Part shown: one piece after another, positions 574 to 42,144 of the stretch
How the letters are laid out: the number at the start of each line of letters is the position of its first letter
Position numbering within the stretch: position 1 is the stretch's first letter
Assembly: GCA_963712745.1 (NCBI GenBank)
Contig: CAVQJC010000001.1
Location: forward strand, 352,001-416,000
DNA from: an uncultured Chloroflexia bacterium
Lineage (GTDB): Bacteria > Chloroflexota > Limnocylindria > Limnocylindrales > CSP1-4
Length of the DNA stretch: 64,000 nucleotides
Direction of reading: 5' to 3'
The notes under the pieces: model-generated
The model's input: the letters and a program-made list of their open reading frames with translations, nothing else
Databases searched by the model: none
Told to the model about the DNA's origin: nothing
Program-made: the position numbers and the translations under genes

Positions 574-1496
574 ACGGCACGAACAACCCGACCGCTTGCG
601 CACCATCTTCGAGCGTGACCGCGACCGCATCACGCACAGCAAGGCCTTTCGGCGCCTGAAGCACAAGACGCAGGTCTTCGTGAACCCCGAGGACGATCAC
701 TACGTCACGCGCCTGACGCACACCATCCAGGTGACCCAGATCGCGCGCTCGCTCGCAGACGCACTCTCACTGAACGAGCCGCTGGCCGAGGCCATCGCGC
801 TGGGCCACGACGTCGGCCACTCGCCCTTCGGCCATACCGGAGAGGAAGCACTCTCGCCGTACTTCCCGACCGTCGGCGGGTGGCACCATGCGGCGCAGAG
901 CGTGCGAGTCTACGAGGTGCTCGAGGACCTCAACCTTGCTTGGGAGGTGCGTGACGGTATCCGCGCACACTCGTGGAAGATCGAGCCGCCACCGACGTAC
1001 GCAGGAGGCCTCTGTGTGCGCTACGCCGACCGTATCGCCTACCTGACGCACGACGCGCTCGACGCCATGCGTGCCGGGCTGCTCACGCAGGACGAGTTCC
1101 CGACGCGCCATCCGTGCCCGCTTCGGCCCGCCCGGCTCGGCCTGGGTCGGGCGGCATGATCGAGGCCGTGGTGGACGGCTCGACTGGCCGAGCGGCGACG
1201 TGACGATGGACGATGAGGTCCTCGCCGACATGACCGAGCTGCGCGACTTCATGTTCGAGCGCGTCTACCTGGCGCCGACGCAGCGCGATCACCATCGCCA
1301 GGCGGTCGAGGTCATCCGTCGCCTGCTGGACCACCACCTCAGCCACCCCGACGAACTGCCTGCTTCGTACCGCGACAACGACGCCGACCGCGTCGTGCAG
1401 GCGGCCGACTACGTCACCGGCATGACCGACCGTTTCGCGCTGCGCAGGCACGAGCAGCTGTTCGGCTACCGCGGCATCGACGACCCGCAGCTGTGA
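470..1496 (+). CDS. dgt: HD-domain dNTP triphosphohydrolase (dGTPase-like, short form); frameshifted near 1100-1190
   Basis: RTIFERDRDRITHSKAFRRLKHKTQVF, TRLTHT, GHDVGHSPFGHTGE, ADRIAY motifs; C-terminal DYVTGMTDRFA in ORF 1071..1496. Confidence 0.9.
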
Positions 1497-1527
1497 GACG
1501 TTTCGACGACCGCTGAGCGGACTGCGC

Positions 1528-2105
1528 GTGGGCCTCGACATGGACGGCGTCCTGGCTGACTTCAACGCTGGCTGGATGCGGCGCTACAACGCGGACTTCG
1601 AGGCGCAGTTGCACCCGTCGATGGTGGTCACGTGGGATGGCTTGCACCGACTTACCCATTTCGAGTCGATGGTCGACTTCTGGGACTGGGCCCGCGGGGA
1701 TGAGCACTCCACCTTCCGGGATGCACCGGCCTTGCCGGGTGCTGTCGAGGCCGTGCCAAGCGCATCGCGCAGAAGCATCGCCTCGTGATCGTCAGCTCCA
1801 AGTTCGACTGGGCCATCCCTGATTCGATGGCCTGGCTGGCGGCGCATGCCATCCCGGCGCGCGAGGTGCACTTCCTGTGGGACAAGACCCTGGCCGCCTG
1901 CGACGTCTACATCGACGATGCACCGCACCAGTTGGCGGAGCTCAGCCGTCGGCTGCCCGAAGCGACCGTCTGTCGCATGGTGCATCCGTGGAACGAACCG
2001 ATGGCCGGCGTGCTCGACGTGCACTCATGGCACGAGTTCGAGACGATCGTCGATGACGCGGCCGTTCGCAAATCCGATCGCGCTGGTCGCACGACCGAGG
2101 GATAG
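1528..2105 (+). CDS. 5'(3')-deoxyribonucleotidase (HAD, NT5C family); frameshifted near 1760
   Basis: GLDMDGVLADF HAD motif I, PGAVEA, DK...CDVYIDDAPH, HPWN across ORFs 1528..1788 and 1785..2105. Confidence 0.82.
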
Positions 2106-2158
2106 TTGCAGGCGCAACTATCCTGTGGCATACTGCGGTCCAGGAAAGGAGACCCCAC

Positions 2159-3161
2159 GTGCCAGCCATCAGCGTTGACGACATCACTGCCCTGCAGCGT
2201 ATCCCCTCCCCCGATCCAGTGACCGCTCGGCCTCGTGCGGTGAAGAGCGTCACACGGGCCCCCAGTGCGTTCGAGGGCGAGGGTTTCCCGGTGCGCCGGG
2301 CCTTCGCGGGTGTCGACCTGCGCGACCTCGACCCGTTCATCCACCTCGACCAGATGGGCGAAGTGGAATACGCGCCCGGTGAACCGAAGGGCACGCCATG
2401 GCATCCGCATCGCGGCTTCGAGACCGTGACCTACATGATCGACGGCATCTTCGAGCATGCCGACTCGAACGGCGGCGGCGGCGTCATCACCAACGGCGAC
2501 ACCCAGTGGATGACCGCTGGTGCGGGCATCCTGCATATCGAGAAGCCGCCGGAGCATCTCGTCATGAGCGGTGGCCTCTTCCATGGCTTCCAGCTCTGGG
2601 TGAACCTGCCCAGGGACAAGAAGTGGGCCGATCCGCGTTACCAGGACCTGCGCGCCGATGAAGTGGCGTTGGTCGCCTCGGATGACGGCGGTGCCCTGCT
2701 GCGCATCATCGCGGGAGAGATCGCCGGCTTCACAGGTCCCGGGTCGACCTATACGCCGATGATCCAGATCCACGCCACCATCAGCCCAGGCGCCGCGGTA
2801 TCCCTGCCCTGGCGAGCCGACTACAACGGCCTGCTCTACGTGCTCAATGGCGAGGGCACGGTCGGGCCCGGAGAAGCGCCCCATCAGCATGGGCCAGCTC
2901 GCGGTGTACGGCGCGGGCAACGTGCTCAGCGTGGCCGCCTCGGCGGTGCAGGAGAGCCGCAGCCCCAGCATGGACGTGCTCATCCTCGGCGGTCGGCCCA
3001 TCCGTGAGCCGGTGGCATGGATGGGCCCGTTCGTGATGAACACGCGCGAAGAAGTCATGCAGGCGTTCAGCGACTACCAGGCTGGTCGCCTCGGCTCGAT
3101 CCCGGCGGTGCATGGCACGCCGGACCGGGTCATCTCGACGGACGGCCAGCCCCGCGCCTGA
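2159..3161 (+). CDS. Pirin family protein; frameshift near 2870
   Basis: EGEGFPVRRAF, DPFIHLDQMG, WHPHRGFETVTY, QWMTAGAGILHIE, GPFVMNTREE; RBS AGGAG upstream. Confidence 0.92.
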
Positions 3162-3193
3162 GAGCGGGCGGATCGATAACGAGCACCCAAGGC

Positions 3194-4037
3194 ATGCGGC
3201 GATTCCAGCAAGTGGATGTCTTCTCGCCGATGCCTCTGGGCGGCAACCCGGTGGCCGTGGTGCTCGACACGGAAGGCCTCACGAGCGCACAGATGCAACG
3301 CTTCACCAGCTGGACCAACCTGTCTGAGGCGACGTTCCTGCTGCCCCCGTCGGACCCTGCCGCCGACTATCGCGTGCGTATCTTCTACGCGGCAGGTGAG
3401 CTGGATTTCGCCGGCCATCCGACACTCGGCAGCTGCCACGCATGGCTCAGCGGCGGGCGGAACGCCCCAGACACCCGACATCATCGTGCAGGAATGCCCC
3501 CTGGGTCTGGTACGCATCCGACGGAGTGAGCGCGGTCTCGCCTTCGAGGCCCCACCGACGCAGCGCGCAGGCCCGGTCAGCCTGCGGAGCTGGACCGTTT
3601 CGCGGGCCATCCTGGGCATCGGCGCGGGGGACGTGATGGACTGTCAGTGGGTCGACAATGGACCCGGGTGGGTCGCGACTGATGCTCCGCTCAGCCGAAG
3701 ACGTGCTGGCGTTGAAGCCGGCCGCGGATGGGGGCGAGCGCGTGGACATCGGCGTCGTGGGTCCGTACCCGCACGGCGCGGAATGTGCGTATGAGGTGCG
3801 CGCCTTCTTCAGCAACGATCGCGGCGACCTGGTGGAGGATCCGGTGACGGGCAGTCTCAATGCGTCGCTCGCCCAATGGCTGGTCAGCAGTGGGCGATTC
3901 GAGGCACCCTACGTGGCCCGCCAAGGCACCGTGCTGGGTCGTTCCGGTCGGGTCCACATCAGCCAGACCGACGACGGCGCATCTGGGTGGGTGGCGATAC
4001 CCACACCATCATGGTGGGCTCGGTCGACCTCGGCTGA
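3194..4037 (+). CDS. PhzF family epimerase/isomerase; several frameshifts
   Basis: QVDVFS..GNPVAVV, NLSEATF, ELDFAGHPTLG, EDPVTGSLNASLAQW motifs across ORFs 3017, 3216 and 3658. Confidence 0.88.
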
Positions 4038-4068
4038 GGCCCGTGGTCAGCCGGGTCGGCCGTGCCGA

Positions 4069-5696
4069 TCAGGTGACCTTGAACAGGATGCGGTGATGAC
4101 CACGAGCACCGTCGGGTGCGGGTCGTGAGCGTCTCAGCGGTCTGCACGTCGCCGTCTGCCGTCGGTGGTGCGCACCGTCACCTCGTGGGTGCCTGGCTGG
4201 GCGTCGTAACGCGACCTTCCACTGCACCCAGGTGGTGTCGTTGAGGGCCTCGGAGAGCTCGGCTGTCTGCCAGTCGACCGTCGTCGATCTGGACTTCCAC
4301 CTTCTCGACGCCGCGGTCCTGCGCCCAGGCCACGCCGGCGATGGCGATGGTACCGGCCTCGCACGCTGCTGCCACGTCCTGGGGACATCGATACGCGACT
4401 GTGTCAGGATCGGCCCTTCCTTGGACCAGCCCCGCGGCACCCAGTAGCCGTCGAAGTCCTCGAGCGTGGTCAGCTCGATCTCGCTCAGCCACTTGGTCGC
4501 GCTGACGTAGCCGTACAGGCCCGGGATGATGAGGCGAGCCGGATAGCCATGGTCGAGCGGCAGCGGCGCCTTGTTCATGCCCAGCGCGATCATCGGCTGA
4601 CGGTCGGGGTCCATGGCCCAGGCCGTCGGAAAGCCGCAGGTCCAGCCGTCGACCGACTTGCTGGCGATCTGGGTCGCGCCGGGCTGTACGCCCAGCCATG
4701 TCGAGCACCTCGCGCAGGTCGACACCGGTCCACAGCGCGTTGCCGATGAGCTTGCCGCCGACCTCGTTGGAGACACAGGCGATGGTGACGTACTGCTCGA
4801 TGAGCGGCATGGCTGACAGCTCGTCGTAGGTCAGGGTGACCTCACGGTCGACCATGCCACCGATCTTGAGGGTCCATTCATCCACGTTGACGCGAGGTGC
4901 GACGAGCGCCGTATCGATCAGGTAGAACTGGTCGTTGGGCGTCACGATGGGGGTGATGCCCGAGCACATCGAGCGAGGCCGTCGAAGGCACGCTCGGCGC
5001 CTGGGCCCGCGGCCACGGGCAGCTCGACGTCGACGGCTGGGCCGCCGGGACGGCTGGTGAGCAGGTTGCGCCCGACGACACCCGAAGACGATCGAGCTGA
5101 CGGCGACACCGCCACCGATCCGCAGGAAGCGCCGGCGATCCCAGTCCGGCATCGAGGCCTCGCCGACATCACGGCAGTGGCCTGCCCATCGGCCGCGTCT
5201 CCCCAGGCCGGGTTGGTCGTGGCCAGCATCAGCCGCAACGCGCCCAGGGCCACGAGCATCGAGACGACGACTGTGAGGATGGTGAGCAGCGGATCGTTGA
5301 GCGGCTGCGCGACGGCTGCCACCAGTCCGGCCGATCCCGGCGATGCTGAAGCCGACGAGCGGGATGTTCCAGTTCCTGCGACCACCCACGCCGAGCAGGC
5401 CGGCGATGAGGATGGCGCCGCCGACGATCATGATGTTGAGCACGAGCTTGTCTGCCTCACCGAACAGGTCGACGAAGATCTCCTTGCCGCCGGGTGGCTG
5501 CAGGTCGATGATCAGGTCGCCGATGGCGATGACCAGAGACGGCGCCCCGGCAACGAGGCCGGCGATCAGTTCGCCGACAGCGATACCAAGGGCGGCCGCG
5601 AGACCGCCAGCCGCGAATGCAGCCGCGTCGGCTGAACGTGAGTGGCATGACGCCGGGTGCGGACGCTGTTTGGGTCGATGTGCTCATGGCAGTCAT
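4069..5696 (-). CDS. Membrane-anchored molybdopterin-dependent oxidoreductase (sulfite oxidase family); frameshifted
   Basis: N-terminal TM helices, DRRRFL, FYLIDTAL, CVSNEVGG (Mo-ligating Cys), HGYPARLIIPGLYGYVSATKWL, PAPDGARGHH. Confidence 0.88.
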
Positions 5697-9446: not shown

Positions 9447-10143
9447 CTACTCGCGGATGTTCTGACGGTCTACGGAGGTGACCTCGCCGCGGAAGTATTC
9501 CCAGGGCCCATCCTTGCGCTCATAGGTCGCGACTACGGTCGAAGGGATACGCACACCGCCGAATTCGCGCGGCTGACCGAAATCACAGCGCCAGGGGGCC
9601 AAAGCAAAGCCGTCGGGCACGTCGTACGGTCGCGCCTTGCTGGTTGCGCGCACGACGTCGCCGCGCGCATCGATGTCGAAGCGCACCGAGACCGGGCGCG
9701 AACCGGCTGCGTGACTGATCTCGAAGGCATCCTTGCCGGCAGCGGTCCACTTCAGGCTTGGTTCCGCTCGCGCCAGATCTGGCACCCAGGCCAGTTCTGC
9801 GAGGCTACGGATGACTTGCATCGTCAGCACCTCGGGTCCCTCGCGCTGGCCCAACGACTTGATGCCGTAGAGCCAGGCGCCACCCCAACCGCGGTCGGCG
9901 GCATGGCCGTCCTTGACCAGGATCCACAGGGCTGTCTTGAGACGCAGCCGTCCGCGCCAGTCGTACGAGAACGGGCGTGCCTCGTACGTGCCGGTCGACT
10001 TGAACGAGAGCCAGCGATCCTGCGCATCCATCTCCCCTTGCTCACCCACCCAGATGCGCTCAGGACTGGGGGCATCCGGGGCGATGACGCTGTCGAGCCA
10101 ACGCTGCGCCGCTGCCGGCAGCTTCGCTGGCATCTCGCGCTCG

Positions 10144-10151
<8 letters not shown>
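9447..10151 (-). CDS. Conserved hypothetical protein (DUF6544/DUF6920-like)
   Basis: LPAAAQRWL..., QGEM, F.WRGR, RSLAELAWVP, W...GVRIPS pattern; overlaps glnS stop. Confidence 0.65.
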
Positions 10152-11870
<1,719 letters not shown>

Positions 11871-12036
11871 GCCCACAAGGGCAGCAGGGACAGATGTCGA
11901 GCCGGGTCGGTAGCAGGCGGGCGCCGGATCCGGATCTGGCTCACGGCGCGATGCGATGGCTCGCCGTCACTACGTGCTGCGAGGCTAGCACAGGGCACGT
12001 CGTGGCTCGGGGTTGTGAGGACTACGTGAGTGCAGC

Positions 12037-12459
12037 CTATGCCTGGAGGAGGATCCATAGCGGCGCGTCAGACGACACCCGATCACTGGTGGCATGCTCG
12101 AGCACATCCCGAAGCATGGCGCGATCCGCGGCGGTGCCCATCGAGGGAGAGCTGCCGCCGAGCACGGCGATGACATATCCGCGCTGCCGTGACGGTAACC
12201 AGGAGAGGTCGCGCAGGGCATCATCGAGGGCATCCCAGTTGTGCCCGAACCAGCCAGGAAACCGCAGCTGCTGCGCGAAGGCAGCCAGGACGCCCGCCTT
12301 GTCGATGACCCCGCTGAGGTCGATCAGTGCCGTCGACCAACCAGCGGCGTCGAATTGGTCCAGGAGCCTGACCATGTCCACCTCGACCCCAACGTCATGG
12401 GCGCCCGGGTCGAGCTCGCTTAGGCCCGCCGGCCACGCCGCTTCGCCAGGTGTGGTCAC
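12037..12459 (-). CDS. Barstar family ribonuclease inhibitor
   Basis: LRFPGWFGHNWDALDDALRDLSW barstar motif; GTG start overlaps RNase TGA (GTGA). Confidence 0.88.
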   Translation of the reverse strand: MTTPGEAAWPAGLSELDPGAHDVGVEVDMVRLLDQFDAAGWSTALIDLSGVIDKAGVLAAFAQQLRFPGWFGHNWDALDDALRDLSWLPSRQRGYVIAVLGGSSPSMGTAADRAMLRDVLEHATSDRVSSDAPLWILLQA

Positions 12460-12902
12460 GGTTCCACGAACCGAAATGAGTCGTAGTGGTCGTCGGTGTA
12501 GTACAGGACCGAGCCAGCCTCGACGACGAGTCGCCGCGCCCCGCGATCTGACGACCCGGGTGTCTCGACGGTGTACTCGCGATAAGCGCCCTGCTGGCGG
12601 CCCGGCAGGAGGCCCTCGCGGTTCTGGAAGGCGGCCCCATCCTGCCGATACGGAAACGGTCCACCGGCAGCGATGAGCGCGAGTACCTCGATCGCTTCGG
12701 GTGGCAAGTCTGCCATCGCGACGCTGGCACCGCGCCAGTCGGACGCTGCTTGCGTGGCCCAAGGCCCCCCGGCAGCATCAGCGCCAGCGCTCCCGCTCGC
12801 GTCCGGGTCAGCACAGGCTGAGACGATGAGCATGAACAGCAACGCGACCATGGAGAACAGTCGGAGGTGACGGTTTCCGTTCGCGGACGACCGGTACGAC
12901 AC
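12456..12902 (-). CDS. Guanyl-specific ribonuclease (RNase Sa/barnase family), predicted lipoprotein
   Basis: GGPFPYRQDGAAFQNREGLLP, YREYTVETPGSSDRGARRLV, YYTDDHYDSF; signal peptide ending in lipobox VSAC. Confidence 0.9.
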   Translation of the reverse strand: MSYRSSANGNRHLRLFSMVALLFMLIVSACADPDASGSAGADAAGGPWATQAASDWRGASVAMADLPPEAIEVLALIAAGGPFPYRQDGAAFQNREGLLPGRQQGAYREYTVETPGSSDRGARRLVVEAGSVLYYTDDHYDSFRFVEP

Positions 12903-12975
12903 GATGGGCCTTCTAGTGCTGGTGCGTGCTACTGCTGGTGCGTGCCAGACCGGCAGCGACGGTCGGACTTGCACA

Positions 12976-13974
12976 TCAGTCGCGCGCGGTGGGGTTGACC
13001 GCATTCCGGGGGCGCCCACCATCGAGGACACGCAAGGCTTCATCGGCACTGAACAGGGCCAGTTCGCGCTTGGCCTCGAGCGAGTACCAGGCCACGTGGC
13101 CTGTCACGAAGACGTTGTCCCGCTGCAGGATGGGGCGACTCAGATCGGGGTCAGGTTCATCCTCGAGTACATCGAGGCCAGCCGCAGAGACGCGGCCATC
13201 CTCCAGCGCGGCCTCGAGAGCATCGATGTCGATGAGTCCACCACGGCTGGTGTTGACCACGACCAGGCCGGGCTTCGCAAGGTCGAGGCGTCGCGTGTCG
13301 ACGAGGTGGTACGTCTCCGGCACGAGCGGGCAATGCAGCGTGATCGCGTCGGCTGTCGCGAACAACTCCTCGAGCCCGAGCGGCTCTGCACCCCTCTCCT
13401 GGATGACTTCGGCCGACAGCCCAGCGTCATGGCCGACGACGCGCCAGCCGAATGCGGCCGCTCGCCTTGCCACCGATGCTCCGATGCGCCCCAGGCCGAT
13501 CACTCCGAGGACTCGCTCGGATGCTCGATGCACCGGCGGCAGCGCCTCATAGCGCAACCAGCCGCGGCCCTCTCGCCAGAGACCCAGCGAGGCATCCAGG
13601 CGCCGGGTCGTCGCGAGCAGCAGCAACATGGTGTGATCGGCCACCTCATCGGCGCAGTAGTCGGGTACGTTGGCGACCCAGATGCCGCGCTGCGTGGCCG
13701 CGTCGACATCGATGAGGTCATAGCCGATGCCGACCCGCACGATGAGACGCGCTTGCAGCAACTCCCGCATCTCCGCCTCTCCCAGGGCCCTGGCACCGTC
13801 GAGGATGACGCTGGAAGTGGCTGCGGCCTTCACGGCCTCGGCGGTCGAGGCGCCATCGGGCACGACGTTCACCTCTACGCCGGCCTCACGCAATCGTTCG
13901 ATGCCGGGCGCCAGTAGTTCGCGAGAGTCGACGACAGCGACCCTGCGTTCCATGGCATCGTCGGGCTGGTTCAT
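12976..13974 (-). CDS. D-isomer-specific 2-hydroxyacid dehydrogenase (CtBP-like)
   Basis: GIGYDLID, NVPDYCADEVADH, GLGRIG, LHCPL, NTSRGGLID, GLDVLEDEP, GHVAWYS. Confidence 0.9.
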   Translation of the reverse strand: MNQPDDAMERRVAVVDSRELLAPGIERLREAGVEVNVVPDGASTAEAVKAAATSSVILDGARALGEAEMRELLQARLIVRVGIGYDLIDVDAATQRGIWVANVPDYCADEVADHTMLLLLATTRRLDASLGLWREGRGWLRYEALPPVHRASERVLGVIGLGRIGASVARRAAAFGWRVVGHDAGLSAEVIQERGAEPLGLEELFATADAITLHCPLVPETYHLVDTRRLDLAKPGLVVVNTSRGGLIDIDALEAALEDGRVSAAGLDVLEDEPDPDLSRPILQRDNVFVTGHVAWYSLEAKRELALFSADEALRVLDGGRPRNAVNPTARD

Positions 13975-15227: not shown

Positions 15228-16605
15228 TTAATCGAGGCTCTTGAGGTACGTGATCAACTCATCGAGCTGCTGGGGCGTCAACATGTCGAACGGTGGCATC
15301 TCTTCGTCTCTCGGGGTTCTGGATGTATTCCCGGAGGTGTGATTCGCTCCAGCGGGCTCCGGCGCGGGACAGGTCCGGACCCTTGGTGCCACCCAGGCCG
15401 TCGATGGTGTGGCAGGCGGCGCAACTGTTCTGGTTGAGGACTGCGAGGCCCGCCAGGTCGGTGACTGTCATGCCCTCCCTTGGTGGGATGGTAGGCACAC
15501 TTGCTCCCGCGCTAGCTCCCAGGTAGGTCAGCCACCCCACACCGCCGACCACGAGCGACCACCAGGACCATCGCGATAGGTCGCTGCCTGGGATGCCTGG
15601 CGCGCCCTCGGTCGATGAACGGCACGGCCAGGAATATCAGCGCGCCGGCGGTGAAGATGCCGAAGATCAGTAGCGGTTCAGTCGGCCCGGTGATGTACCA
15701 GAGCAACTGGAACATGTCGAGGAAGTACCACTCGGGTCGGGGCACGTAGCTGATGGTGTTGGGGTCTGCTGGCTCCTCGAGCGGGAGCGCCGAGGACCAT
15801 GGCCGCGACGACCACGGCGCCCACGATCACGAGCGCGACGATGGCGTCCTTGAGTAGCGCCTTCCAGAACGGTTTGCCGGCCTCCTTCTCGGCGGCGTAC
15901 TCACGCCGGTACGCATCCCGGCGAGACTCACCGGGTTCGGGCGCCACGAGGGGCGTGCGGCGCGGCGTTGCCGCGATGCCCTGGCGCACGACCATGAAGA
16001 GGTGCAGGCCCACGAGCAGGAGCAGGGACGCCGGCAGTACCCAGACGTGGATGCCGTAGAACCGGGTCAGGCCCACGGCTCCCGAGCGCCTCGCCGCCAC
16101 GCAGGAACTCGATGACGGATCCGCCGATGAAGGGCGCCGATCCGGCGATGTTGGTGCCCACCACGGTGGCCCAGTAGGCCTTCTGGTCCCAGGGCAGCAG
16201 GTAGCCGGTGAAGGCGAAGCCCATGATCACGAACAGCAGGCTCGCGCCGACGACCCAGCTCAGCTCACGCGGATACTTGTGGGCGCCCCAGATGAAGACG
16301 CGCAGGGCATGCAGTCCGACCAGCACTACGAGCAAGCCGGCCGAGGCTCGATGCATCGAGCGCACCAGCTCGCCAAAGGGCGTCTGGTCGATGTAGAGGA
16401 CGCTGGCATAGGCGTGGTCGGGCGACGGCACATACGACATCGACAACGTGATGCCAGTGACGATCTGGACGACCAGAAGAACGAGGGTCGCGCTGCCCAG
16501 CGTGTGGAACCAGTTGATGTTGCCCGGGACGTGGCGGTCGAGGAAGGCACTGAGCAGCTCGTCGGTGCCAAGCCGTTCGTCGAGCCAACGCGCCACACGC
16601 GTCAT
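15228..16605 (-). CDS. Cytochrome b (unsplit, PEWY motif) fused to a C-terminal monoheme cytochrome c; about four frameshifts
   Basis: RSMH...GLH and GIH...GLH heme-b His pairs, FTGYLLPWDQKAYWA, VPRPEWYF, then CAACH...GPDLS...EMPPF ending in TAA at 15228. Confidence 0.85.
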
Positions 16606-17261
16606 CCTTCTGGTTCCGACGGTCAGCAGTGCGCGGAGTTGGACTCTCGCCGTTCTCGACGCGCGTCTCGTAGACGTCCATGCGGCGCGGGGGCGGACCA
16701 GCGGTCGGGTAGCCCTCCGGATCGAAGGCACCACCGTGGCAGGGGCAAAGGTACGAACCGGAGCCCACCGCGTAGCGGACCGGGCAACCGAGGTGCGTGC
16801 AGTGCGGGTCGAGGACGGTGGCGTTGCTATTCGCCCTCCCGCAACACGAAGACGCCGACAGGCTCGACTCGCTCTACCCATCCGTCCTGGATCGAGACGA
16901 TCGACGGTGATGTACTGCGGGATGCCCAGTTCGTAATCGTCGAGAGGACCAGCGGACGACCACTCGTCCGAGCGGAGCGCCGGCGATACGGTCTCGGAGA
17001 GGAGTCGCCTGGGCAGCGTGCGAGAGCCAGCCCGGGAGCGGTCATGAAGGCGAGTGCCGGGATCGCCACGATCGCAGCCGCGATGCACTGAGGACCGCCA
17101 TGAGCGCGAGAACGAAGCCACGTCGCGACAATCGCGGCACGGGTCCCGTCGTGGCCGGCTCCGGTGGTGGGGCCGGTTGCGTCTTCGAGACGGTGCCTTG
17201 ACCTTGTCGGGCGAGACCGACCGGAACTTCCGGTCTTGTCCGTGATCGGATCGACGTCCAC
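16602..17261 (-). CDS. Rieske [2Fe-2S] subunit with Tat signal; frameshifted, start approximate
   Basis: CTHLGC and CPCHGG boxes near 16810-16735; LSRRGFVLAL twin-arginine motif near 17130; GPPPR. Confidence 0.85.
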
Positions 17262-17299
17262 AGCTGCGCGCCCGCCCTTTCCAGCGATGTCGAGAATAG

Positions 17300-17344
17300 G
17301 CCAGTCGCGCCGGGCCCAGGAGGGGCAGATGCGGCGCGACTGGC
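17300..17344. terminator. 13-bp GC-rich hairpin between the heme-protein gene and the Rieske gene (attenuator or mRNA stabiliser)
   Basis: GCCAGTCGCGCCG-19 nt-CGGCGCGACTGGC perfect inverted repeat; no strong U tract. Confidence 0.55.
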
Positions 17345-17353
17345 GAGAGACGG

Positions 17354-18220
17354 CTAGTTCAGGGTGACCTCGATCCAACCACTCTCGGCGTTGGTGAGGT
17401 GTCCGGGGTCAGACCAGCCCTCTGCGTGCTCACGTGGATCCCACCAGGCGAGCACGAGGGAGGCGATTCCGCCAGCCTCGAACTGGGCATCCTGCGGGTC
17501 GCCGGTGTTCAGTGGCCGCGACATCTCGAACGTCCAGGTGCCATCGCCGCCGATCTCGGCAGCGCTGTGGCTCCAGGCGCCGGCGAGGCTGTTCTCGGCG
17601 GCGTCGTTGGCGATGTCGCCACCACCGTCATCCTCACGCATCGTCGGCGTCGTGGCGTACTCGTCGTCGAAGTTGCAGGCTTCGTCATTGCCGCCCGCGA
17701 CACCCTGGCCGCCGGTCAGAACGCCGGGTCCACACTCGAGCTCCCAGTGCCAGATATCGACCATGCCGGTGCTGGTGAGCAGGTCTTCTTCTTCAGCGCC
17801 CATGTGGACCGCCGTGGCGGGATCGATCCACGATTCGACGGCGAGCGCCGGCGATAGGTGGGCATCATCGGCCACGTAGTCGTATGGGGTCGGCACTTCG
17901 ACCAGCACATAGACGTTGTCGGCATCATTGGCGACAGCGATCTGCACATCGATGGGGTCGACTGGGCCGACCTCGGCAGCTTCGTCAGCTTCGAGGATGG
18001 AGGTGTCGTACTGTTCCAGCGTCACCGTCGTGCGCGCTACGTCGGCCCAGTCCGATGCGTCGCCGTCCACGGTGATGGGTACAGCAGCAGCGGTGATGGC
18101 GAATCCGGCCCCACCCTCCGCGTTGTCTTCGTCAGTCTGCGCCGCGACGCCCGCGGTAGAGATGGCTAGTAGCCCCGCCGCCGCCATGGCAGACAGGAAT
18201 GTGGACCTGGATCGTCGCAT
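17354..18220 (-). CDS. Secreted acidic DOMON-like / ethylbenzene dehydrogenase (EB_dh) heme-binding protein
   Basis: Signal peptide ending VAAQ; PITVDGDASDW, VHMG, VDIWHW, GTWTFEMSRPLNTGDPQDAQF, AWWD...GH; RBS GAGG. Confidence 0.75.
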   Translation of the reverse strand: MRRSRSTFLSAMAAAGLLAISTAGVAAQTDEDNAEGGAGFAITAAAVPITVDGDASDWADVARTTVTLEQYDTSILEADEAAEVGPVDPIDVQIAVANDADNVYVLVEVPTPYDYVADDAHLSPALAVESWIDPATAVHMGAEEEDLLTSTGMVDIWHWELECGPGVLTGGQGVAGGNDEACNFDDEYATTPTMREDDGGGDIANDAAENSLAGAWSHSAAEIGGDGTWTFEMSRPLNTGDPQDAQFEAGGIASLVLAWWDPREHAEGWSDPGHLTNAESGWIEVTLN

Positions 18221-18294
18221 CGGTATCACCTCTCGTGATGAGCATCTCGGGATCCACGTGTCCGAGACCCGTGGTCACCCCGTGGCCACCAAAA

Positions 18295-18346
18295 TGCTAG
18301 GACGGGAGGTGTCGCGAAGGCGTCAGCGGCGTGTCTCGATCGTGTC
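18295..18346 (-). promoter_or_regulatory. Promoter of the heme protein-Rieske-cytochrome operon: four GACAC/GACGC repeats at 11-bp pitch plus -10 TAGCAT
   Basis: Plus-strand GTGTC/GCGTC at 18309, 18320, 18331 and 18342; ATGCTA at 18295-18300. Confidence 0.7.
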
Positions 18347-18404
18347 AAAAAGACCGAGCAGTGCATAGCCGCGCGTTCTTGCCTGTGCTACACCTGTTTT
18401 GACC

Positions 18405-19548
18405 ATGGCGATGTTGCGAACGTCCCTCAGCACCGGTTCCGGGCTGCGCTTGTTGCGGCTCGTGCGCTGGCTGCTGCCCCTTGTCCTTGCCTTGGTGGCC
18501 GTCGTCTTCGAGTTTGGCGAGCATTTCCAGGAGGGTGCGGACGAGCTCGCACCTAGCGGCATGGCCGAGATCGTGGTCTTCGCAGTGGTCGGACCAGTGG
18601 CTGTCTTCATCACGCTGGTCTGGGTCGAGCGCCTGGTCACCGCGTATCAGGAGACCTCGGCTGAGCTGGCCGGCCGTGAACCAGGATCTGGAGGCTCGCA
18701 TCGAGGAACGCACGGCCCATCTTGCGGTGACAGGGACCCAGCTGCGCGAAGCCAATGCGGAGCTGGCTCGCGCAAACGAGGAGCTGCGGCAGCTGGATCG
18801 ACTCAAGTCGGAGTTCGTTTCACTTGTCTCACACCAGCTGCGGGCGCCCCTCACCAACATCAATGGCGCTCTGGAGATCGTGGCCCAGGATGCCGACGAC
18901 CTCCCAGCACGACACGCAACGCACGCTGCGCATCCTGGTCAGTGAAGGGAAGCATCTGTCGTGGCTGATCCAGACCATCCTCGACGTGTCCAGGATCGAG
19001 GCCGGACGTCTGCAGCCACGTCTCGGGCCGGTCGCGCTGGGACCGTTGCTGGCTGAAGCCTGTGCTGCGACACTCGCTGGCGAGCCCGAGGCCGGCCGCA
19101 TCGGCTCATGGTCCCGGAAGGCCTGCCGCCTGCGATGGGCTGACGAGACGCTGCTTGGCGAGGTCGTACGGAATCTCATCGAGAACGCCATGCGCTATTC
19201 ACAGACTGGCACGCCGGTCGAGGTGGCCGCGAGGTACGACGGGGACGGGCTCGTGATCTCGGTGACCGATCACGGGTATGGCGTGCCATCGGAGGAACAG
19301 GAGCGCATCTTTCGCGTCCTTCCATCGTGTCTCCGATGGCGACAGACGACGTCAAGGGTTCCGGATTAGGCCTCTATTTCGCCGAACGACTGATGCGCGC
19401 GATGGGCGGCTCGGTCGAGGTGAAGAGCCCCGTCTGGCCAGAACCGCACGCGCCCGGAGCTCGCTTCAGCGTTCGACTGCCGATGGCCGACGATGTGCCC
19501 GACGAGGAACAGGATCACCTCGATGAGCCTGGGCTGGTGGCCGGCTGA
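18405..19548 (+). CDS. Sensor histidine kinase (2 TM, short loop); frameshifted
   Basis: H-box VSHQLRAPLTNI, N-box NLIENAMRYS, G1 DHGYGV, G2 GSGLGL. Confidence 0.9.
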
Positions 19549-20245
19549 TGTCACGCATCCTCGTCATCGACGACGATCGATCCCTGCTCGAACTTCTGTT
19601 CAGACTACCTGCGGCGCCAGGGCTTCGACGTCTCGACCGCATCGTCGGGTCAGGCTGGGCTTGGCGGCGTTCTCGGAGCAGGGCTCCGACCTGGTGCTCC
19701 TGGACGTGACCATGCACGGACTCGACGGCTGGCAGGTGCTGGCGCGGTTGCGGGAGCGATCAGCCGTGCCCATCATCATGCTGACGGCCCGGAGCGAGGA
19801 ATCCGAGGTACTGCGCGGTTTCTCGGGCGGAGCCGACGACTACGTCAGCAAGCCCTTCAGCTTTGCGCAGCTCGTGGCGCGCATCGGGGCCGTGCTCGAG
19901 CGGGCCAACCGGTCTCACGGCACGGCCATCGGGGTCTTGCGGGGCGGAGACCTGGAGGTCGACGTGGACCGCCATCGGGTCTACCGCTCTGGCGAGACCA
20001 TCGACCTTACGGCGACCGAGTTCAGGATCCTGACGGCGTTGCTGCGCGAACAGGGCCGGGTGCTGTCGTTGCGCGAGCTGGTGACCGAGGTCTGGGGTGC
20101 CGACTACGCCGAGGAGACCGGCTATGTACGTCGCTATATCTGGCACTTGCGACACAAGATCGAGCCCGACCCAGGTCGACCTCGCTACATCCTCAACGAA
20201 CGCAGCATCGGCTACGTCTTCCCGGCGGATGCGGACTTGGCGTGA
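19548..20245 (+). CDS. OmpR/PhoB family response regulator; frameshifted N-terminus
   Basis: RILVIDDD, LVLLDVTM, PIIMLTAR, GADDYVSKPF, LTATEFRIL, LRHKIEPDP; TGATG coupling to the kinase. Confidence 0.92.
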
Positions 20246-28370: not shown

Positions 28371-29125
28371 TCCGGCTCGAGCAGGCCAGCATCGACCGGG
28401 TGGGGGCCGAACGCGACCGTGGGCCGGTCGAGGCGCGCGGCGCTGGCGCGCTTGATGAACAACGCCACCCTGAAGGGGTCCTTGACTGGACCGCGCCGAG
28501 CCCGAGGTGCAACCTCGACGCCGCTGGAGACGTCCACACCGACGGCCGGGATATCGATCAAGGCACCGGCTACGTTGGACGCGTCGAGTCCACCAGCCAG
28601 CACCACCGGCGTACGCCCGGCGATCGTCTGGGCGACCGACGCCGAGGCACGCTGCCCGGTGCCGCCGAGGACCCCAGGTGCAGCCGTATCGAGCAGGATG
28701 GCGCGCAGGTTCGACCTGGACTCGTACTCCACCACATCGGACAAGAGCGCCGCGAGATCAGGTGGGCTGAGCTGCGTGTCGCCCGCGGGCACGTGCAGGA
28801 CCTTGAGCACTGGTAGCGGGATCAGATCCAGGTCGGCAGGCCGGCTCGCTGCCATGCAGCTGCACCATGTCGAGACCCAGCCGAGTGGCCATGGCCGCGA
28901 CCTCGGCCGGATCCTGGTCGGCGAAGACGCCCACCAGCAAGGGTCCATTGCCCGGCGATCGAGGCCACGCGCGATGGCGATCAGCTTGGTCGCCTGGGCC
29001 TCATCGAGGACGCGCGGACTGCCGGGCACGAAGTTGAAGCCGATAGCATCCGCGCCGGCCGCGATCGCGGCCGCCAAGCCGTCGGCCTCCGGGATACCGC
29101 AGATCTTCACGAACGGCTGGCGGCC
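28371..29125 (-). CDS. trpF: Phosphoribosylanthranilate isomerase domain (fused to TrpB; compensating frameshifts at about 28950 and 28840)
   Basis: [52 protein letters not shown]. Confidence 0.9.
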
Positions 29126-29970
29126 GTCGACGGCAGGATCGACGCCCGGTCCCGCCTTGCGTGCCAGCGCTCACCAAGGTGGCGACGCGCGACTCGATCT
29201 CGCCGGGATCGGTGCCACTGCGCATCAGGTCTTCGCCGACCAGAGCCGCATCGAAAGCGAGTGCCCGCCAGCGACGCAGCGTGCTCGCGTCCCGCACGCC
29301 CGACTCCGCCATCACGAGGCGATCGTCGGGAACCTGCGAGCGCAGCCGGTCGGAGAGCTCGGCATCGACCTCGAGCGTGCGCAGGTCGCGGTTGTTGATA
29401 CCGATAAGGCGCGCTTCGGTGGCCACCGCCGCTGCCAGTTCCCGCTCGTCGTGCGCCTCCACGAGTGGCTCGAGGCCAACACGCTGGGCCGCCCGCACCA
29501 GGCGCGCCAGTCGCTTGGGCGGGTGCAGGGCAGCGAGCAGAAGCACGGCGTCAGCGCCGGCTGCGCGAAGCAGTGGCAGCTGGCGTGCATCGACCACGAA
29601 CTCCTTGGCCAGGATCGGCAACGGTGGTGGCTGCGCGCGCCAGCCGAAGATCGTCGAGGGAGCCACCGAACCAATGCGGCTCGACGAGCACCGAGATCAT
29701 CGAGGCGCCGCCGGCCTGGTAGGCACGAGCGCGCTCCGCCACGTCGAGCTCGCCATCGATCATCGCGCCAGCCGAAGGCGAGCTGCGCTTGATCTCGGCG
29801 ATGAGGTGTAGGCCGGGGCGCGCCAGACGGCCGACCACGTCACGACGAATAGGCCCGGCGCCCGATGCACGCGTGACCGCACGCAGATCGTTCGACCCGA
29901 ACTCGGTGGCAACGTCCTCGGCGCGTCGTGTGGCGATCTGGTGCAGCACCGAATCCGCTCTCGTGCTCAT
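29126..29970 (-). CDS. trpC: Indole-3-glycerol phosphate synthase (probably fused to TrpF-TrpB); frameshift near 29630
   Basis: [56 protein letters not shown]. Confidence 0.92.
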
Positions 29971-31018
29971 GCCTGGGCCCCTTCGCCGCCACGCCCGGCA
30001 CGCGCCCGCAGACGCTGGAGCAGGTCGAATGCCGCCCCAGAGCCGATGGTCTGCTCAGCCAGCGCCACCCCAGCCCGGAGATCGCTCGCGAGGCCGGCCA
30101 TCTCCAGAGCCGCGGCAGCATTCAGCACGACCACGTGCCGCGCCGGACCGTCGAGTTCATCGCGCAGGATGGCTTCGACCAGGCGCGCGTTGGCTTCGCC
30201 ATCACCCCCGGCGAACTCGCTCGTGGACGCAACCGGCAAGCTATGGTCGGCACTGGTCACGGTCCGCCGAACGATGCCCGCTGGCGAGACGTCGAAGATG
30301 ATGCCGCTGTCATCGAGCGGCAGCTCGTCGATGCGGTCGCCGGTGACGACGAAGGCACGTTGCGTGCCCAGGGCGTGCAACGTCTCAGCCGCCTTTCGGG
30401 CCACCGCCTCATCGGGCACTCCCATCAACTGACGAGTCGGTTCAGCCGCATTGGCGATGGGGCCGATGAAGTTGAAGGCCGTGCGTACGCCGAGCTCCAT
30501 CCGAACCGGACCTGCGTGACGCATGCCGGGGTGGAAGGCTGGCGCGTGCAGATAGGCATAGCCATCTTCGCGCAACGATGCCTCCGCTTCATCCCGGTCC
30601 AGCTCGACGGCCAGCCCCAGGGCACGCATGACGTCGGAGCTGCCCGAGATACCCGACACCGCCCGGTTGCCGGTCTTGGCCACGGTCACGCCGCTCGCCG
30701 CGGTGACCAGCGACGAAGCCGTGGAGATGTTGAAGGTCTGGTGGCCGTCGCCGCCGGTGCCGCACGTATCGATGGTGCCATCGGGCGCCGGCACGTGGAT
30801 GGAGCGCGAGCGCAACGCGCGCACGAAGCCGGTCAGCTCGTCTGTCGTCTCACCGCGGACATGCATGCCCACGAGAACGCCCCCGAGCTGCGCGGGCGTG
30901 ACCTCACCATCGAGCACCGCGGCCATGAACGACTTCCGCAGCTGCCGCATCCAACGTCTCGCCAGCGGCGACGCCACGCAGGGTCGCACGGATCATGTCG
31001 CTGGTGGCTATCGGTCAC
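29967..31018 (-). CDS. trpD: Anthranilate phosphoribosyltransferase; N-terminal frameshifts
   Basis: DTCGTGGDGHQTFNISTA, KTGNRAVSGISGSSD, FHPGMRH, RTAFNFIGP. Confidence 0.93.
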
Positions 31019-32935: not shown

Positions 32936-33721
32936 ATGAGCGAGACCTTCAGCCTGGCTGGCAGGAACGCTGTCGTGACGGGGCTCTCGGGCGGCATCGG
33001 CCAGGCCATCGCGGCAACGCTCGCCCGCGAGGGCGCCAACGTCGCGGGCGACTACCTCAGCAATACCGAGGGTGCCGCCGCGACCGCCCGATCGATCGAG
33101 GCACAGGGTCGCGAGGCACTCATCATGCAGGGTGATACCGGCGATGAAGCGCACATCCAGACTCTCGCCGACGAGACCGTGGCGCGCTGGGGCAGCCTCG
33201 ATATCTGGGTCAACAACGCCGCCCGGCTGATGGTGCGCGACTTCTTCGAGACCTCCAGCGATGACTGGCACGGTCTGCTGCAGGCCAACCTGCACGGCTA
33301 CTACTACGGCTGCAAGGCAGCCGCAGAGCGGATGCGCGGGCCAGGCCCTGGCCGCATCATCAACATCACCTCCGAAGCCGATGTGCAGGCCATCAGCGGC
33401 CTGAGTGCCTACATCACCGCCAAGGGCGGTGTGGTGGCCTTGACCAAGGTCCTGGCCCTCGAACTCGCCCCGTACGAGGTGACCGTCAACGCCGTTGCCC
33501 CGGGTGCCACCGAGACACCCCTCAACGCGGTGGCCTATACCGACGAAGTGCGTGCCAACTACGACAGGCGCATCGGCCTGGGCCGCATCGGCGTGCCCCA
33601 GGAGATCGCCGATGTCGTCGCCTTCGTGGCCTCGGACGCATCCCGCTACATGACCGGCCAGGAGTTGCTCGTCGATGGCGGACTGTCGATCAACGGCAAC
33701 GTCGGGCACGCCGCCACATAG
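32936..33721 (+). CDS. SDR family oxidoreductase
   Basis: TGLSGGIG, VNNAA, YITAK, NAVAPG, TGQELLVDGG. Confidence 0.9.
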   Translation: MSETFSLAGRNAVVTGLSGGIGQAIAATLAREGANVAGDYLSNTEGAAATARSIEAQGREALIMQGDTGDEAHIQTLADETVARWGSLDIWVNNAARLMVRDFFETSSDDWHGLLQANLHGYYYGCKAAAERMRGPGPGRIINITSEADVQAISGLSAYITAKGGVVALTKVLALELAPYEVTVNAVAPGATETPLNAVAYTDEVRANYDRRIGLGRIGVPQEIADVVAFVASDASRYMTGQELLVDGGLSINGNVGHAAT

Positions 33722-33723
33722 GG

Positions 33724-34699
33724 GTGGCGCCGCTCGTCCTCGTCATCGGCCGCCAGTTCGGGGAGCCCCCGCCAGGCCTCCCGGAAACCACGAACGCCGT
33801 GCGCTACGTCTTCGCGGATGACCTCGAGGGTGTCCGTGAATACATCGCCGAGGCCGAGATCGTCTTCCACTACGGTGGCCCGCGCACCGCACTTCGGGAT
33901 GTCTGGGCGGAGACCAGCCGACTGCGCTGGATCCACGTCGGCAATATCGGCGTCGACTGGGCGCTCTTCCCCGAGCTGATCGAAAGCGACGTCGTGGTGA
34001 CCAACAGCCGCGGCGTGTTCGATGTGAGCATGCCCGAGTACGCCCTTGCCTTGATGCTGGCGTTACTGAAGGATCTGCCGGGCAGCATCAGGCTCCAGCA
34101 GCAACAGCGCTGGCAGCATCGTGCTCTCGAGCCACTGGCGGGCGGGCACGTGGTCATGCTCGGTGCCGGGTCCATCGCCCGCTCCACCGGCCGGGTATTG
34201 CGGGCCATGGCCATGAGCGTGACCATCGTGGGCACCACCGAGCGCGATGGTGGCGTTGACGAGGGGCGCATCCGCAGCGTGGCTGATCTGCACGACCTGC
34301 TGCCTGCGGCCGACTGGCTCATCTGTGCGACACCGCTGACACGAGCGACACATGGGCTCATCGGCGCTGCCGAACTGGCGCAGCTGCCTCGAGGGGCGCG
34401 CGTCGTGAACATCGGGCGCGGGCCAGTCGATCTCGGAAGCCGCGCTGCTCGGAGCGCTCCGCTCGGGCGCGCTCGCCGGGGCAGCACTGGATGTCTTCGA
34501 GACAGAGCCACTGCCTCGGGGGCACCCTTTCTGGTCGATGCCCAACGTCATCGTCTCACCGCACATCGGCGGTGACGTCACGACATCGGGTGCCGCCTTC
34601 ACGCGCTCGTTCCTGGCCAACCTGGAACGCTATCTGGAGGCCCGCCCCATGCATGATGTCGTGGACAAGCACCTCGGCTACGTGCCCACCACAAGCTGA
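33724..34699 (+). CDS. D-2-hydroxyacid dehydrogenase; frameshift near 34430
   Basis: TNSRGVFD, GAGSIA, NIGRG, ALDVFETEPLP, SPHIGG. Confidence 0.85.
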
Positions 34700-40973: not shown

Positions 40974-40995
40974 CAGGGCAGCATAGACTGCCGAC
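40974..40995. promoter_or_regulatory. Bidirectional leaderless promoter with overlapping -10 hexamers
   Basis: TAGACT (+, 40984-40989) and TATGCT (-, 40980-40985), each exactly 6 nt from an ATG. Confidence 0.7.
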
Positions 40996-41779
40996 ATGCC
41001 GCCGACCGTCCATGCCACCCGTTACATCGCACCACTGCGGGAGGGCGGTTCTCTGCCGGGTCTGATGGAGGCAGACGACGAGGGCACCTACGTGGTCAAG
41101 TTCCGCGGTGCCGGCCAGGGGCCCAAGGCGCTGGTGGCGGAACTGGTGAGCGGACAGATCGGGCAAGCGCTCGGGTTGCCGGTACCAGATCTGGTGTTGG
41201 TGGAACTCGATCCCGCCTTCGCGCGCTTGGAGATGGACCCCGAGATCCAGCACCTGCTGCGTGCCAGCGAGGGCCTCAACGTGGCCCTCGATTTCCTGCC
41301 TGGATCGATCAGCTACGACCCCCAGGTGCCCCCGCCGGTGGATGCCGACTTCGCGGCCGCGGTCGTCTGGTTCGATGCCTTCATCACCAACATCGACCGC
41401 ACCGCGCGCAACACCAATATGCTCAGCTGGCACGGTCGGCACGTGGCTCATCGACCACGGCGCGTCGCTGTATTTCCAGCATGACTGGCGCGATGTGCTG
41501 GGCCGTGCCATCGATCCCTTCACGCTGGCGAGGGACCACGTGCTGCTGCCGTTCGCAGGTGACATCGCAAGCGCGGGCCAGCGGGCGCGAGGGCGATTGA
41601 GCGCCGAGGTGCTGGAGGCGATCCTGGCGTCGGTGCCGGACCTGTGGCTCTCGGCTGGCTACGGCGATGAGTCCGTGCCCCAGGTGCGCGACACGTTGCT
41701 GCGCTACCTGCTCGTGCGCCTTGATGCCGCCCGTGTATTCGAGGAGGAGGCCGACCGTGCCCGAGCGCTGCTCGTATGA
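40996..41779 (+). CDS. HipA-like kinase (HipA_2 family); frameshift near 41440
   Basis: YIAPLREGGSLPG, YVVKFRGAGQGPKALVAE, NIDRTARNTNML, WLIDHGASLYF. Confidence 0.88.
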
Positions 41780-42144
41780 CTACGCGGTAGTCCGCGTGGT
41801 GCCCTCGGAGGAGCGGGCCGAGTTCATCAACGTCGGCATCATCCTGCACGCCAAGGCCCATGGTGTCCTCGCGATCCGGATCGATCTGGACGAGGCGCGA
41901 TTGCGGGCCATGGCGCCGTCCATCGACGTAGCCATGGTGCGCGCGCATCTCGAATTCGATGCAGCGCATCAGCGCGGGTGGTACGGACACCGGACCCATC
42001 GGCCGACTCAGCCAGTCACAGCGCTTCCACTGGCTGGTGTCGCCGCGCAGCACCGTCATCCAGACCTCGCCGGTGCACTCGGGCCTGTGCGACGACCCGC
42101 AGCGCGAACTCGATCGGCTCTTCGGTCGCCTAGTGGAGAGATGA
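41757..42144 (+). CDS. DUF3037 domain protein; frameshift near 41960
   Basis: YDYAVVRVVP..ERAEFINVGIIL, QRFHWLVSPRSTVIQTSPVHSGLC. Confidence 0.88.

Follow-up and report, generated by a model that had tools for sequence, protein, structure and literature searches.

The locus described here raises the question of why the gene for an exported haem-type protein should lead an operon for a quinol-oxidizing complex, and with what that protein would exchange electrons. It lies at 15228–20245 of a 64 kb window (the whole stretch of DNA that was analysed; G+C content 65–70 %) from a contig of an uncultured Limnocylindrales bacterium of the phylum Chloroflexota. Three genes on the minus strand, running from 18229 to 15231, encode an EB_dh/DOMON protein, a Rieske protein and a cytochrome b–c fusion, and are faced by a divergent pair of genes for a histidine kinase and an OmpR-family response regulator. 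The reading that we prefer, with a probability of roughly 0.6, is that of a menaquinol-type Rieske/b6c operon led by an exported haem b DOMON protein, which would act as the dedicated outside partner of the cytochrome c domain. An original prediction from the letters of the window had proposed a redox module of this kind; its partnership part was supported by the analysis below and its genes were corrected to the minus strand. The features of the locus were assigned as follows.

17354..18229, minus strand: exported EB_dh/DOMON-fold protein; 291 amino acids (aa), unbroken open reading frame; Pfam EB_dh
~16603..17251, minus strand: Rieske [2Fe-2S] protein with a twin-arginine translocation (Tat) motif; from frameshift-aware alignment and Pfam Rieske; start codon uncertain
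15228..16605, minus strand: cytochrome b6, subunit IV and monohaem cytochrome c in one gene; 457 codons plus stop (15228–15230)
18230..18398, no strand: divergent intergenic region of 169 bp between the EB_dh gene and the kinase gene
18399..19548, plus strand: histidine kinase; Pfam HisKA and HATPase_c pieces in three frames
19548..20245, plus strand: OmpR-family response regulator; Pfam Response_reg 4.4e-18, Trans_reg_C 4.4e-21

Read from the frames, the stop codon of the Rieske gene and the ATG of the cytochrome b gene overlap by one base, and the kinase stop and the regulator ATG share one base. The motifs by which the Rieske and cytochrome b–c genes had been recognized (SRRGF, CTHLGC/CPCHG, PEWY and CAACH) were all found after read-through of the frame breaks described below. 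The kinase/OmpR pair is divergent as proposed; the gap, earlier put at about 185 bp, was measured at 169 bp.

The EB_dh gene has no frame breaks. For the Rieske and cytochrome b genes, frameshift-aware alignment to intact relatives placed seven and four single-base indels respectively, 10 of these 11 being an extra base. Those in the Rieske gene fall near 17084, 17030, 17020, 16893, 16829, 16645 and 16623 (six extra bases and one missing), and the four in the cytochrome b gene, all extra single bases, near 16080, 15782, 15556 and 15309. The kinase gene changes frame at least four times (around 18650, within 18894–18905 and twice within 19315–19336) and the regulator gene twice within 19548–19661, these positions having been read by eye from the frames and Pfam domain coordinates with no relative aligned. 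When read through, the Rieske protein was 73–74 % identical to its relatives P0249 and P0243 over the full length, and 407 of 457 residues (89 %) of the cytochrome b were identical to P0121. Both read-through products retained all cofactor motifs and contained no in-frame stop. Six unrelated genes of the window were likewise split, with complementary halves of one Pfam domain or enzyme in different frames.

1426..2102: NT5C
3008..4125: PhzF
4072..5683: sulfite-oxidase-family molybdenum domain
9824..11876: class I Glu/Gln tRNA synthetase
29004..30054: IGPS
33265..34696: 2-hydroxyacid dehydrogenase

Because the tRNA synthetase gene is split too and the bias towards one extra base is strong, the frameshifts in the Rieske and cytochrome b genes are read as uncorrected assembly or sequencing errors, which occur window-wide, rather than as decay. 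It is barely credible that the Rieske, cytochrome b, kinase and regulator genes are truly dead and that only the DOMON gene works. The unbroken 876-nt DOMON gene does lie among at least 17 frame changes within about 4.1 kb; at the local rate about 3.6 breaks would be expected in it, so that the probability of finding none is about 0.03, which is only mildly unusual. The pseudogene reading was dismissed on the retained motifs, the absence of in-frame stops, the 73–89 % identity to relatives, the one-extra-base bias, which looks like sequencing error, and the window-wide splitting of unrelated genes. The operon is thus taken as genuine and intact in the organism. The whole contig carries single-base indel errors, and its gene calls need polishing before being trusted.

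The DOMON protein begins with a signal-like segment (MIPMRRSRSTFLSAMAAAGLLAISTAGVAAQ) and matched Pfam EB_dh (PF09459) at 44.7 bits against a cut-off of 33.3 (E=2.2e-11), with residues 58–266 aligned to positions 1–227 of the 236-position profile. An AlphaFold2 model of the protein had a mean predicted local distance difference test score (pLDDT) of 73 and a predicted template modelling score (pTM) of 0.74. The top Foldseek matches of the model were the gamma subunit of ethylbenzene dehydrogenase (2ivf_C; E 5e-9, template modelling scores 0.57/0.75) and NxrC (7b04; E 1.3e-8), followed by CBM9 modules at E 1.4e-5 to 4.7e-5. In a sequence search of solved structures NxrC was the sole clear relative (E 8.1e-7). 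The score against NCBIfam TIGR03477, the DMSO reductase type II haem b subunit, was 22.3 bits against a cut-off of 169.85, so that the protein is not filed as a gamma subunit.

A word-index search found 464 relatives, mostly 280–330 aa long. The few with names were called ‘ethylbenzene dehydrogenase-related protein’ and came from metagenome-assembled genomes of Chloroflexota, Dehalococcoidia and Actinomycetota. A profile search run exhaustively over 1.84 billion cluster representatives returned 231 with E<=0.001, of which 63 had E<=1e-30, and the family is a compact one. A protein-atlas search with the DOMON protein returned EB_dh clusters only, and tblastn against 72,556 plasmid records gave no match. 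In Thermoplasmata and some other members (L004 6785–7948; P0305) collagen-like triple-helix repeats follow the EB_dh domain.

When the window protein was aligned with 56 divergent representatives, 53 of the 57 sequences had Met143 and 53 had His277, which ranks both with the most conserved positions; His142 and the two Cys residues were not conserved. An acidic loop, R198–D205 (R-E-D-D-G-G-G-D), was also conserved. In the known gamma subunits haem b is held by a Met/Lys pair, which is Met155/Lys305 in NxrC (excerpt of PMC8387239) and is described likewise for ethylbenzene dehydrogenase gamma (excerpt of PMC8840923). His277 lies within about three residues of the position aligned to NxrC Lys305, an approximate placement obtained by extending a partial alignment, and the one Lys that is nearly conserved across alignment A1 (position 98) is replaced by Ala in the window protein. 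Most likely, judging from these conserved residues, the DOMON protein carries one haem b with Met143 and His277 as the axial pair, as against Met/Lys in the known gamma subunits.

The read-through Rieske protein contains SRRGF (the Tat motif), CTHLGC and CPCHGGAF, and one fragment matched Pfam Rieske at E 1.1e-6. According to the excerpt available of PMC3509893, Gly and Phe at two Rieske positions are tied to potentials below +200 mV. The window protein has both residues, in CPCHGGAF, which would fit a low-potential, menaquinol-type complex. Database sources label the Rieske protein as menaquinol-cytochrome c reductase.

The cytochrome b fragments matched Pfam Cytochrome_B (5.7e-39, 134 bits), Cytochrom_B_C (1.2e-6) and Cytochrom_C (5.1e-9), together with Cytochrom_B_N_2. 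The read-through product contains PRPEWYF, with the PEWY quinol-site motif, and a C-terminal CAACH cytochrome c. The His pairs for haems bL and bH are present as MHRAS...GLHAL and GIHVW...GLHLF, and we take the 14-residue spacing of the second pair to be of the b6 type. For the relative P0121 the best NCBIfam match was ‘cytochrome b6’, at 226 bits and below the cut-off of 325; QcrB_actin scored 91.7 bits, below its cut-off of 500. Models for subunit IV and for c-type cytochromes match later in the P0121 chain, and the window cytochrome b is accordingly a distinct fused form in which b6, subunit IV and a monohaem cytochrome c make up one 457-aa polypeptide. This fusion is widespread, with 3156 matches among 8000 candidates. 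Among the 120 fusion matches listed, nearly all were 454–463 aa long, all were 69–92 % identical, and some were named from Candidatus Limnocylindria or Chloroflexota. The second-best NCBIfam matches of P0121 were ExtP (210 bits against a cut-off of 290) and ExtQ (25 against 150), named ‘selenite/tellurite reduction operon b-type cytochrome’; these matches hint at b6-type complexes elsewhere that are dedicated to special electron outlets.

Evidence for a partnership between the DOMON protein and the quinol complex was sought in domain fusions, gene neighbourhoods and modelled complexes. Among 19 long family members scanned, three (P0302, P0308 and P0324) combine cytochrome c with EB_dh, in the order membrane anchor, monohaem cytochrome c, Pro/Thr linker and EB_dh, and one (P0307) combines an immunoglobulin-like (Ig-like) domain, cytochrome c and EB_dh. 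A cupredoxin precedes EB_dh in P0303, a marginal match of 21.0 bits against a cut-off of 21.2. Tandem EB_dh domains were found in 6 of the 19, including P0298 (two EB_dh domains and HmuY), and weak CBM9_1 Pfam matches in some.

The neighbourhood sample consisted of one genome scan with six loci (L001–L006). In three of them the DOMON homologue, there a lipoprotein, stands in one gene string with a DsrO-like Tat iron–sulfur (FeS) protein and a DsrP-like, NrfD-type membrane protein.

L001: NrfD-type locus, Limnocylindria
L003: NrfD-type locus, Gemmatimonadales
L006: NrfD-type locus, Anaerolineaceae

Two of the three, L001 and L003, also encode a membrane-anchored monohaem cytochrome c, and a HisKA_3 kinase with a LuxR-type regulator adjoins all three clusters. 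A two-component system is therefore adjacent in all four clusters that have a quinol module (the window, L001, L003 and L006). Quinol module plus two-component system recurred in half of the loci, and the Rieske/cytochrome b arrangement in none. Taken with the window, these loci show one haem-type protein family wired to two unrelated quinol modules, Rieske/b6c and NrfD/FeS.

Two further proteins recur near the NrfD-type clusters. One is a small protein that combines a signal peptide, an Ig-like domain (weak Big_1/Big_3_5 matches) and a C-terminal membrane helix (L001 5941–6510, L006 6201–6818, L003 10282–11367); in all three clusters its gene separates that for NrfD from those for the cytochrome c or DOMON protein. 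L003 and P0307 have it fused to cytochrome c, and the window lacks a counterpart. The other, an HmuY-like protein, is encoded after the L003 cluster (11351–12067) and is also the domain fused behind the two EB_dh domains of P0298, making it a recurring outside-membrane partner.

For closer relatives, co-location was inferred from equal-sized contigs across the hit lists, with the expectation estimated from near-misses. Identical lengths occurred six times between the EB_dh and Rieske lists (expected about 1.3), four times between EB_dh and cytochrome b (about 1.4) and nine times between Rieske and cytochrome b (about 0.7). Eight of the ten EB_dh contig matches, those from the same source, were taken as linked. 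In a 123-row tree seven of these eight members fell within the 36-row clade of the window protein (Shimodaira–Hasegawa approximate likelihood ratio test support, SH-aLRT, 99), and the NrfD-linked members fell elsewhere.

A co-fold of the haem protein with the cytochrome c domain had been suggested as informative, and was run on the cytochrome c domain of P0122 together with P0007, both relatives of the window proteins, and on two haems. The pair scored 0.66 and the best of three controls 0.00. Of 157 solved complexes 116 attained that mark, as did 2 of 215 mismatched pairs; these benchmark counts are only rough here, where own alignments and small molecules were included. Contact agreement between runs was 100 % and partner pLDDT at least 91. 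In the modelled interface the DOMON loop after the conserved Met and the acidic loop face R410, R414 and W415 beside the haem c site. Because of the cytochrome c fusions, the adjacency to two kinds of quinol module and the passing co-fold, the view that the haem-type protein is not an accidental neighbour of the quinol complex is supported.

Under the preferred reading electrons would pass from quinol to a low-potential Rieske cluster, then to the fused cytochrome c, to the DOMON haem b and on to an acceptor encoded elsewhere; reverse flow would also be compatible with the operon. The haem, the direction of flow, the regulation and the acceptor are the parts of this scheme that we infer.

The divergent kinase/OmpR pair probably switches the operon. 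Both partners are present by Pfam fragments as an OmpR/PhoB-type pair, the regulator as receiver plus winged helix and the kinase with two membrane helices, a short outside loop, HisKA and HATPase_c. The outside loop is rich in Glu and His, and it might be speculated that it senses a metal. Against NCBIfam the best regulator matches were MtrA, RpaB and KdpE, all far below their cut-offs, and no equivalog was reached. A tandem 11-nt direct repeat at 18268–18289 (CCCGTGGTCAC / CCCGTGGCCAC), 39–60 nt upstream of the DOMON start, has OmpR-type spacing and is a candidate regulator site, of a length at which two-copy repeats often arise by chance. A simple promoter scan of the divergent region returned no sigma-70-like sites, and it held two terminator-like sites, no more than in shuffles.

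Several observations weigh against the preferred reading. No Rieske/cytochrome b gene lies beside a homologue in any of the six loci, redox genes are missing next to the homologue in both archaeal loci (L004 and L005), and L002 ends at a contig edge. The regulator families differ, being OmpR/HisKA in the window and LuxR/HisKA_3 in the loci. The contig matching is indirect, and several long contigs with close cytochrome b relatives have no matching EB_dh entry. The co-fold used relatives rather than the window's own broken cytochrome c domain, and P0007 and P0122 were assumed to share a contig from equal size (5347) and common source. The cytochrome c of L001 and of fusion P0302 share with the window-type domain only the generic CxxCH stretch, a comparison that gives no support for a common origin of the cytochrome c partners in the two cluster types. 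Finally, the Lys haem ligand of the gamma subunits is missing from the DOMON family, the conserved residue nearby being His277, and haem binding is inferred solely from the conserved Met and His.

Of the other explanations, it is somewhat unlikely that the Rieske/b6c complex is simply the ordinary complex III of the lineage, with the DOMON protein as a lineage-specific carrier or extra subunit towards an oxidase and the two-component pair incidental or general. The abundance and high conservation of the b–c fusion, including some Limnocylindria, would be expected of a housekeeping complex, as would the menaquinol-cytochrome c reductase label of the Rieske protein, and no second bc complex was seen in the 64 kb window, a span too small to show that this is the sole one. 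The DOMON family, with its 231 clusters, is however far smaller than that of the fusion, and in the Limnocylindria locus L001 the DOMON gene is paired with NrfD/FeS instead, which suggests accessory modules. The adjacent two-component system in four of four clusters also weighs against this rival, and a fused cytochrome c should be able to reach an oxidase without a further carrier. It is very improbable that the DOMON-fold protein is a haem-free, CBM9-like carbohydrate-binding or unrelated secreted protein that is merely upstream of the bc genes. The CBM9 modules among the Foldseek matches and the weak CBM9_1 matches in long members are in keeping with such a protein; the cytochrome c fusions, the linkage to two kinds of quinol module, the near-invariant Met and His and the passing co-fold are not.

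It is also improbable, though less so, that the DOMON protein is an orphan gamma subunit, carrying the haem b of a type II DMSO-reductase-family enzyme (of the type of periplasmic nitrate reductase, nitrite oxidoreductase, or chlorate or selenate reductase) whose alpha and beta subunits are encoded elsewhere and which is fed by the bc complex. Its best structural matches are indeed ethylbenzene dehydrogenase gamma and NxrC, the latter also being its sole strong sequence match, and there is a precedent for a periplasmic b-type cytochrome between Rieske/cytochrome b and NarGH (excerpt of PMC3509893). Molybdenum-cofactor synthesis genes occur near the L003 cluster (1011–3185; MoeA, MoaC and MoCF_biosynth) and the L006 cluster (9647–11500; MoaE fused to a ThiS/MoaD-like domain), and with the molybdenum gene of the window they leave room for a molybdoenzyme partner. 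Nevertheless, the TIGR03477 score is far too low, the Lys ligand is replaced, and the fusions join cytochrome c and not FeS subunits. As had been noted originally for the immediate neighbourhood, no MopB-type molybdoenzyme or haem-copper oxidase was found, here among 149 reading frames of the window (61 + 83 + 5) scanned against Pfam. Beside the homologues, none of the six loci had a molybdoenzyme alpha (MopB) or FeS beta (NarH-type) gene, or an oxidase.

The molybdenum gene of the window (4072–5683, minus strand), some 10 kb from the operon, belongs to the sulfite-oxidase family; it has Oxidored_molyb in two frames, a hydrophobic N-terminus and a Tat-like RRRFLRIGG.

Comparison with known systems places the operon among several partial precedents. 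In the haloarchaeal clusters that encode Rieske/cytochrome b (NarB/NarC) with Nar, a periplasmic b-type cytochrome has been proposed to carry electrons to NarGH (excerpt of PMC3509893). Like the window, where the haem is predicted, these clusters combine Rieske/cytochrome b with a periplasmic b-type cytochrome; they have NarG and NarH and lack a cytochrome c gene, whereas the window has a fused cytochrome c and no Nar genes. The haloarchaeal ‘soluble b’ probably belongs to the EB_dh family, although the tblastn search of plasmid records gave no direct sequence link. The type II DMSO-reductase gamma subunits (2ivf_C and NxrC 7b04) share with the window protein the fold, the EB_dh profile and probably the Met ligand position; they bind the FeS beta subunit of a molybdoenzyme and use Met/Lys ligation, whereas the window has no alpha or beta genes and His in place of Lys. 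Bacillus QcrABC resembles the window in its Rieske protein, b6-type cytochrome b and low-potential Rieske residues, and its QcrC links subunit IV to a monohaem cytochrome c. In the window b6, subunit IV and cytochrome c instead make up one 457-aa chain, and a DOMON gene leads the operon.

The NrfD-type clusters have their own counterparts in alternative complex III and DsrMKJOP/Qrc, which likewise combine a Tat FeS protein, an NrfD-type subunit and a monohaem cytochrome c. L001, L003 and L006 differ from alternative complex III and DsrMKJOP in having no multihaem ActA/DsrJ-type subunit and no MopB-like domain, and have a DOMON protein instead. A combination of DOMON with NrfD/FeS is not described in the excerpt available of an NrfD review (PMC8076601). 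The family or its pairing was likewise not found in literature on DOMON/EB_dh with NrfD, Rieske, Limnocylindria bc or NarB/NarC, a search that left most subscription journals uncovered and is weak evidence.

The cytochrome domain of cellobiose dehydrogenase and the CYBDOM ferric reductases, likened here by description, also place a DOMON haem b on the outer face, fed by a membrane or flavin module. They are eukaryotic, belong to other DOMON subfamilies and receive their electrons from cytochrome b561 or a flavodehydrogenase. Haem ligation in the cytochrome domain of cellobiose dehydrogenase is of the Met/His kind. A tentative and rather unlikely extension of the preferred reading is that the chain ends with the DOMON protein, a surface Met/His haem b ‘outlet’ that reduces or oxidizes an external substrate (ferric or manganese species, humic quinones or a secreted copper enzyme), is fed by interchangeable quinol modules and is switched by the two-component systems. 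If true, this would make it a prokaryotic counterpart of the cytochrome b561–DOMON ferric reductases and the cellobiose dehydrogenase cytochrome domain.

Two other regions of the window were recorded. A barnase-type secreted ribonuclease (Pfam Ribonuclease, 12456–13049, minus strand) lies beside a barstar-type inhibitor (Barstar, 12040–12777, minus strand), with overlapping frames. At 40987–43346 on the plus strand, a HipA_2 kinase fragment is followed by a frame with DUF3037 and a partial glycoside hydrolase 15, probably several genes merged by indels.

Cells oxidize quinols outside the membrane mainly in two ways, through Rieske/cytochrome b or through NrfD-type complexes, and one uncharacterized haem-protein family wired to both would mark an undescribed respiratory branch. 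Its carriers are abundant and poorly cultured, comprising Chloroflexota including Limnocylindria, Gemmatimonadota and some Thermoplasmata. The family would offer, in its Met/His pair, a natural alternative to the Met/Lys haem site of the gamma subunits, and identifying the acceptor could reveal a new terminal reaction or an outward electron route for single-membrane bacteria.

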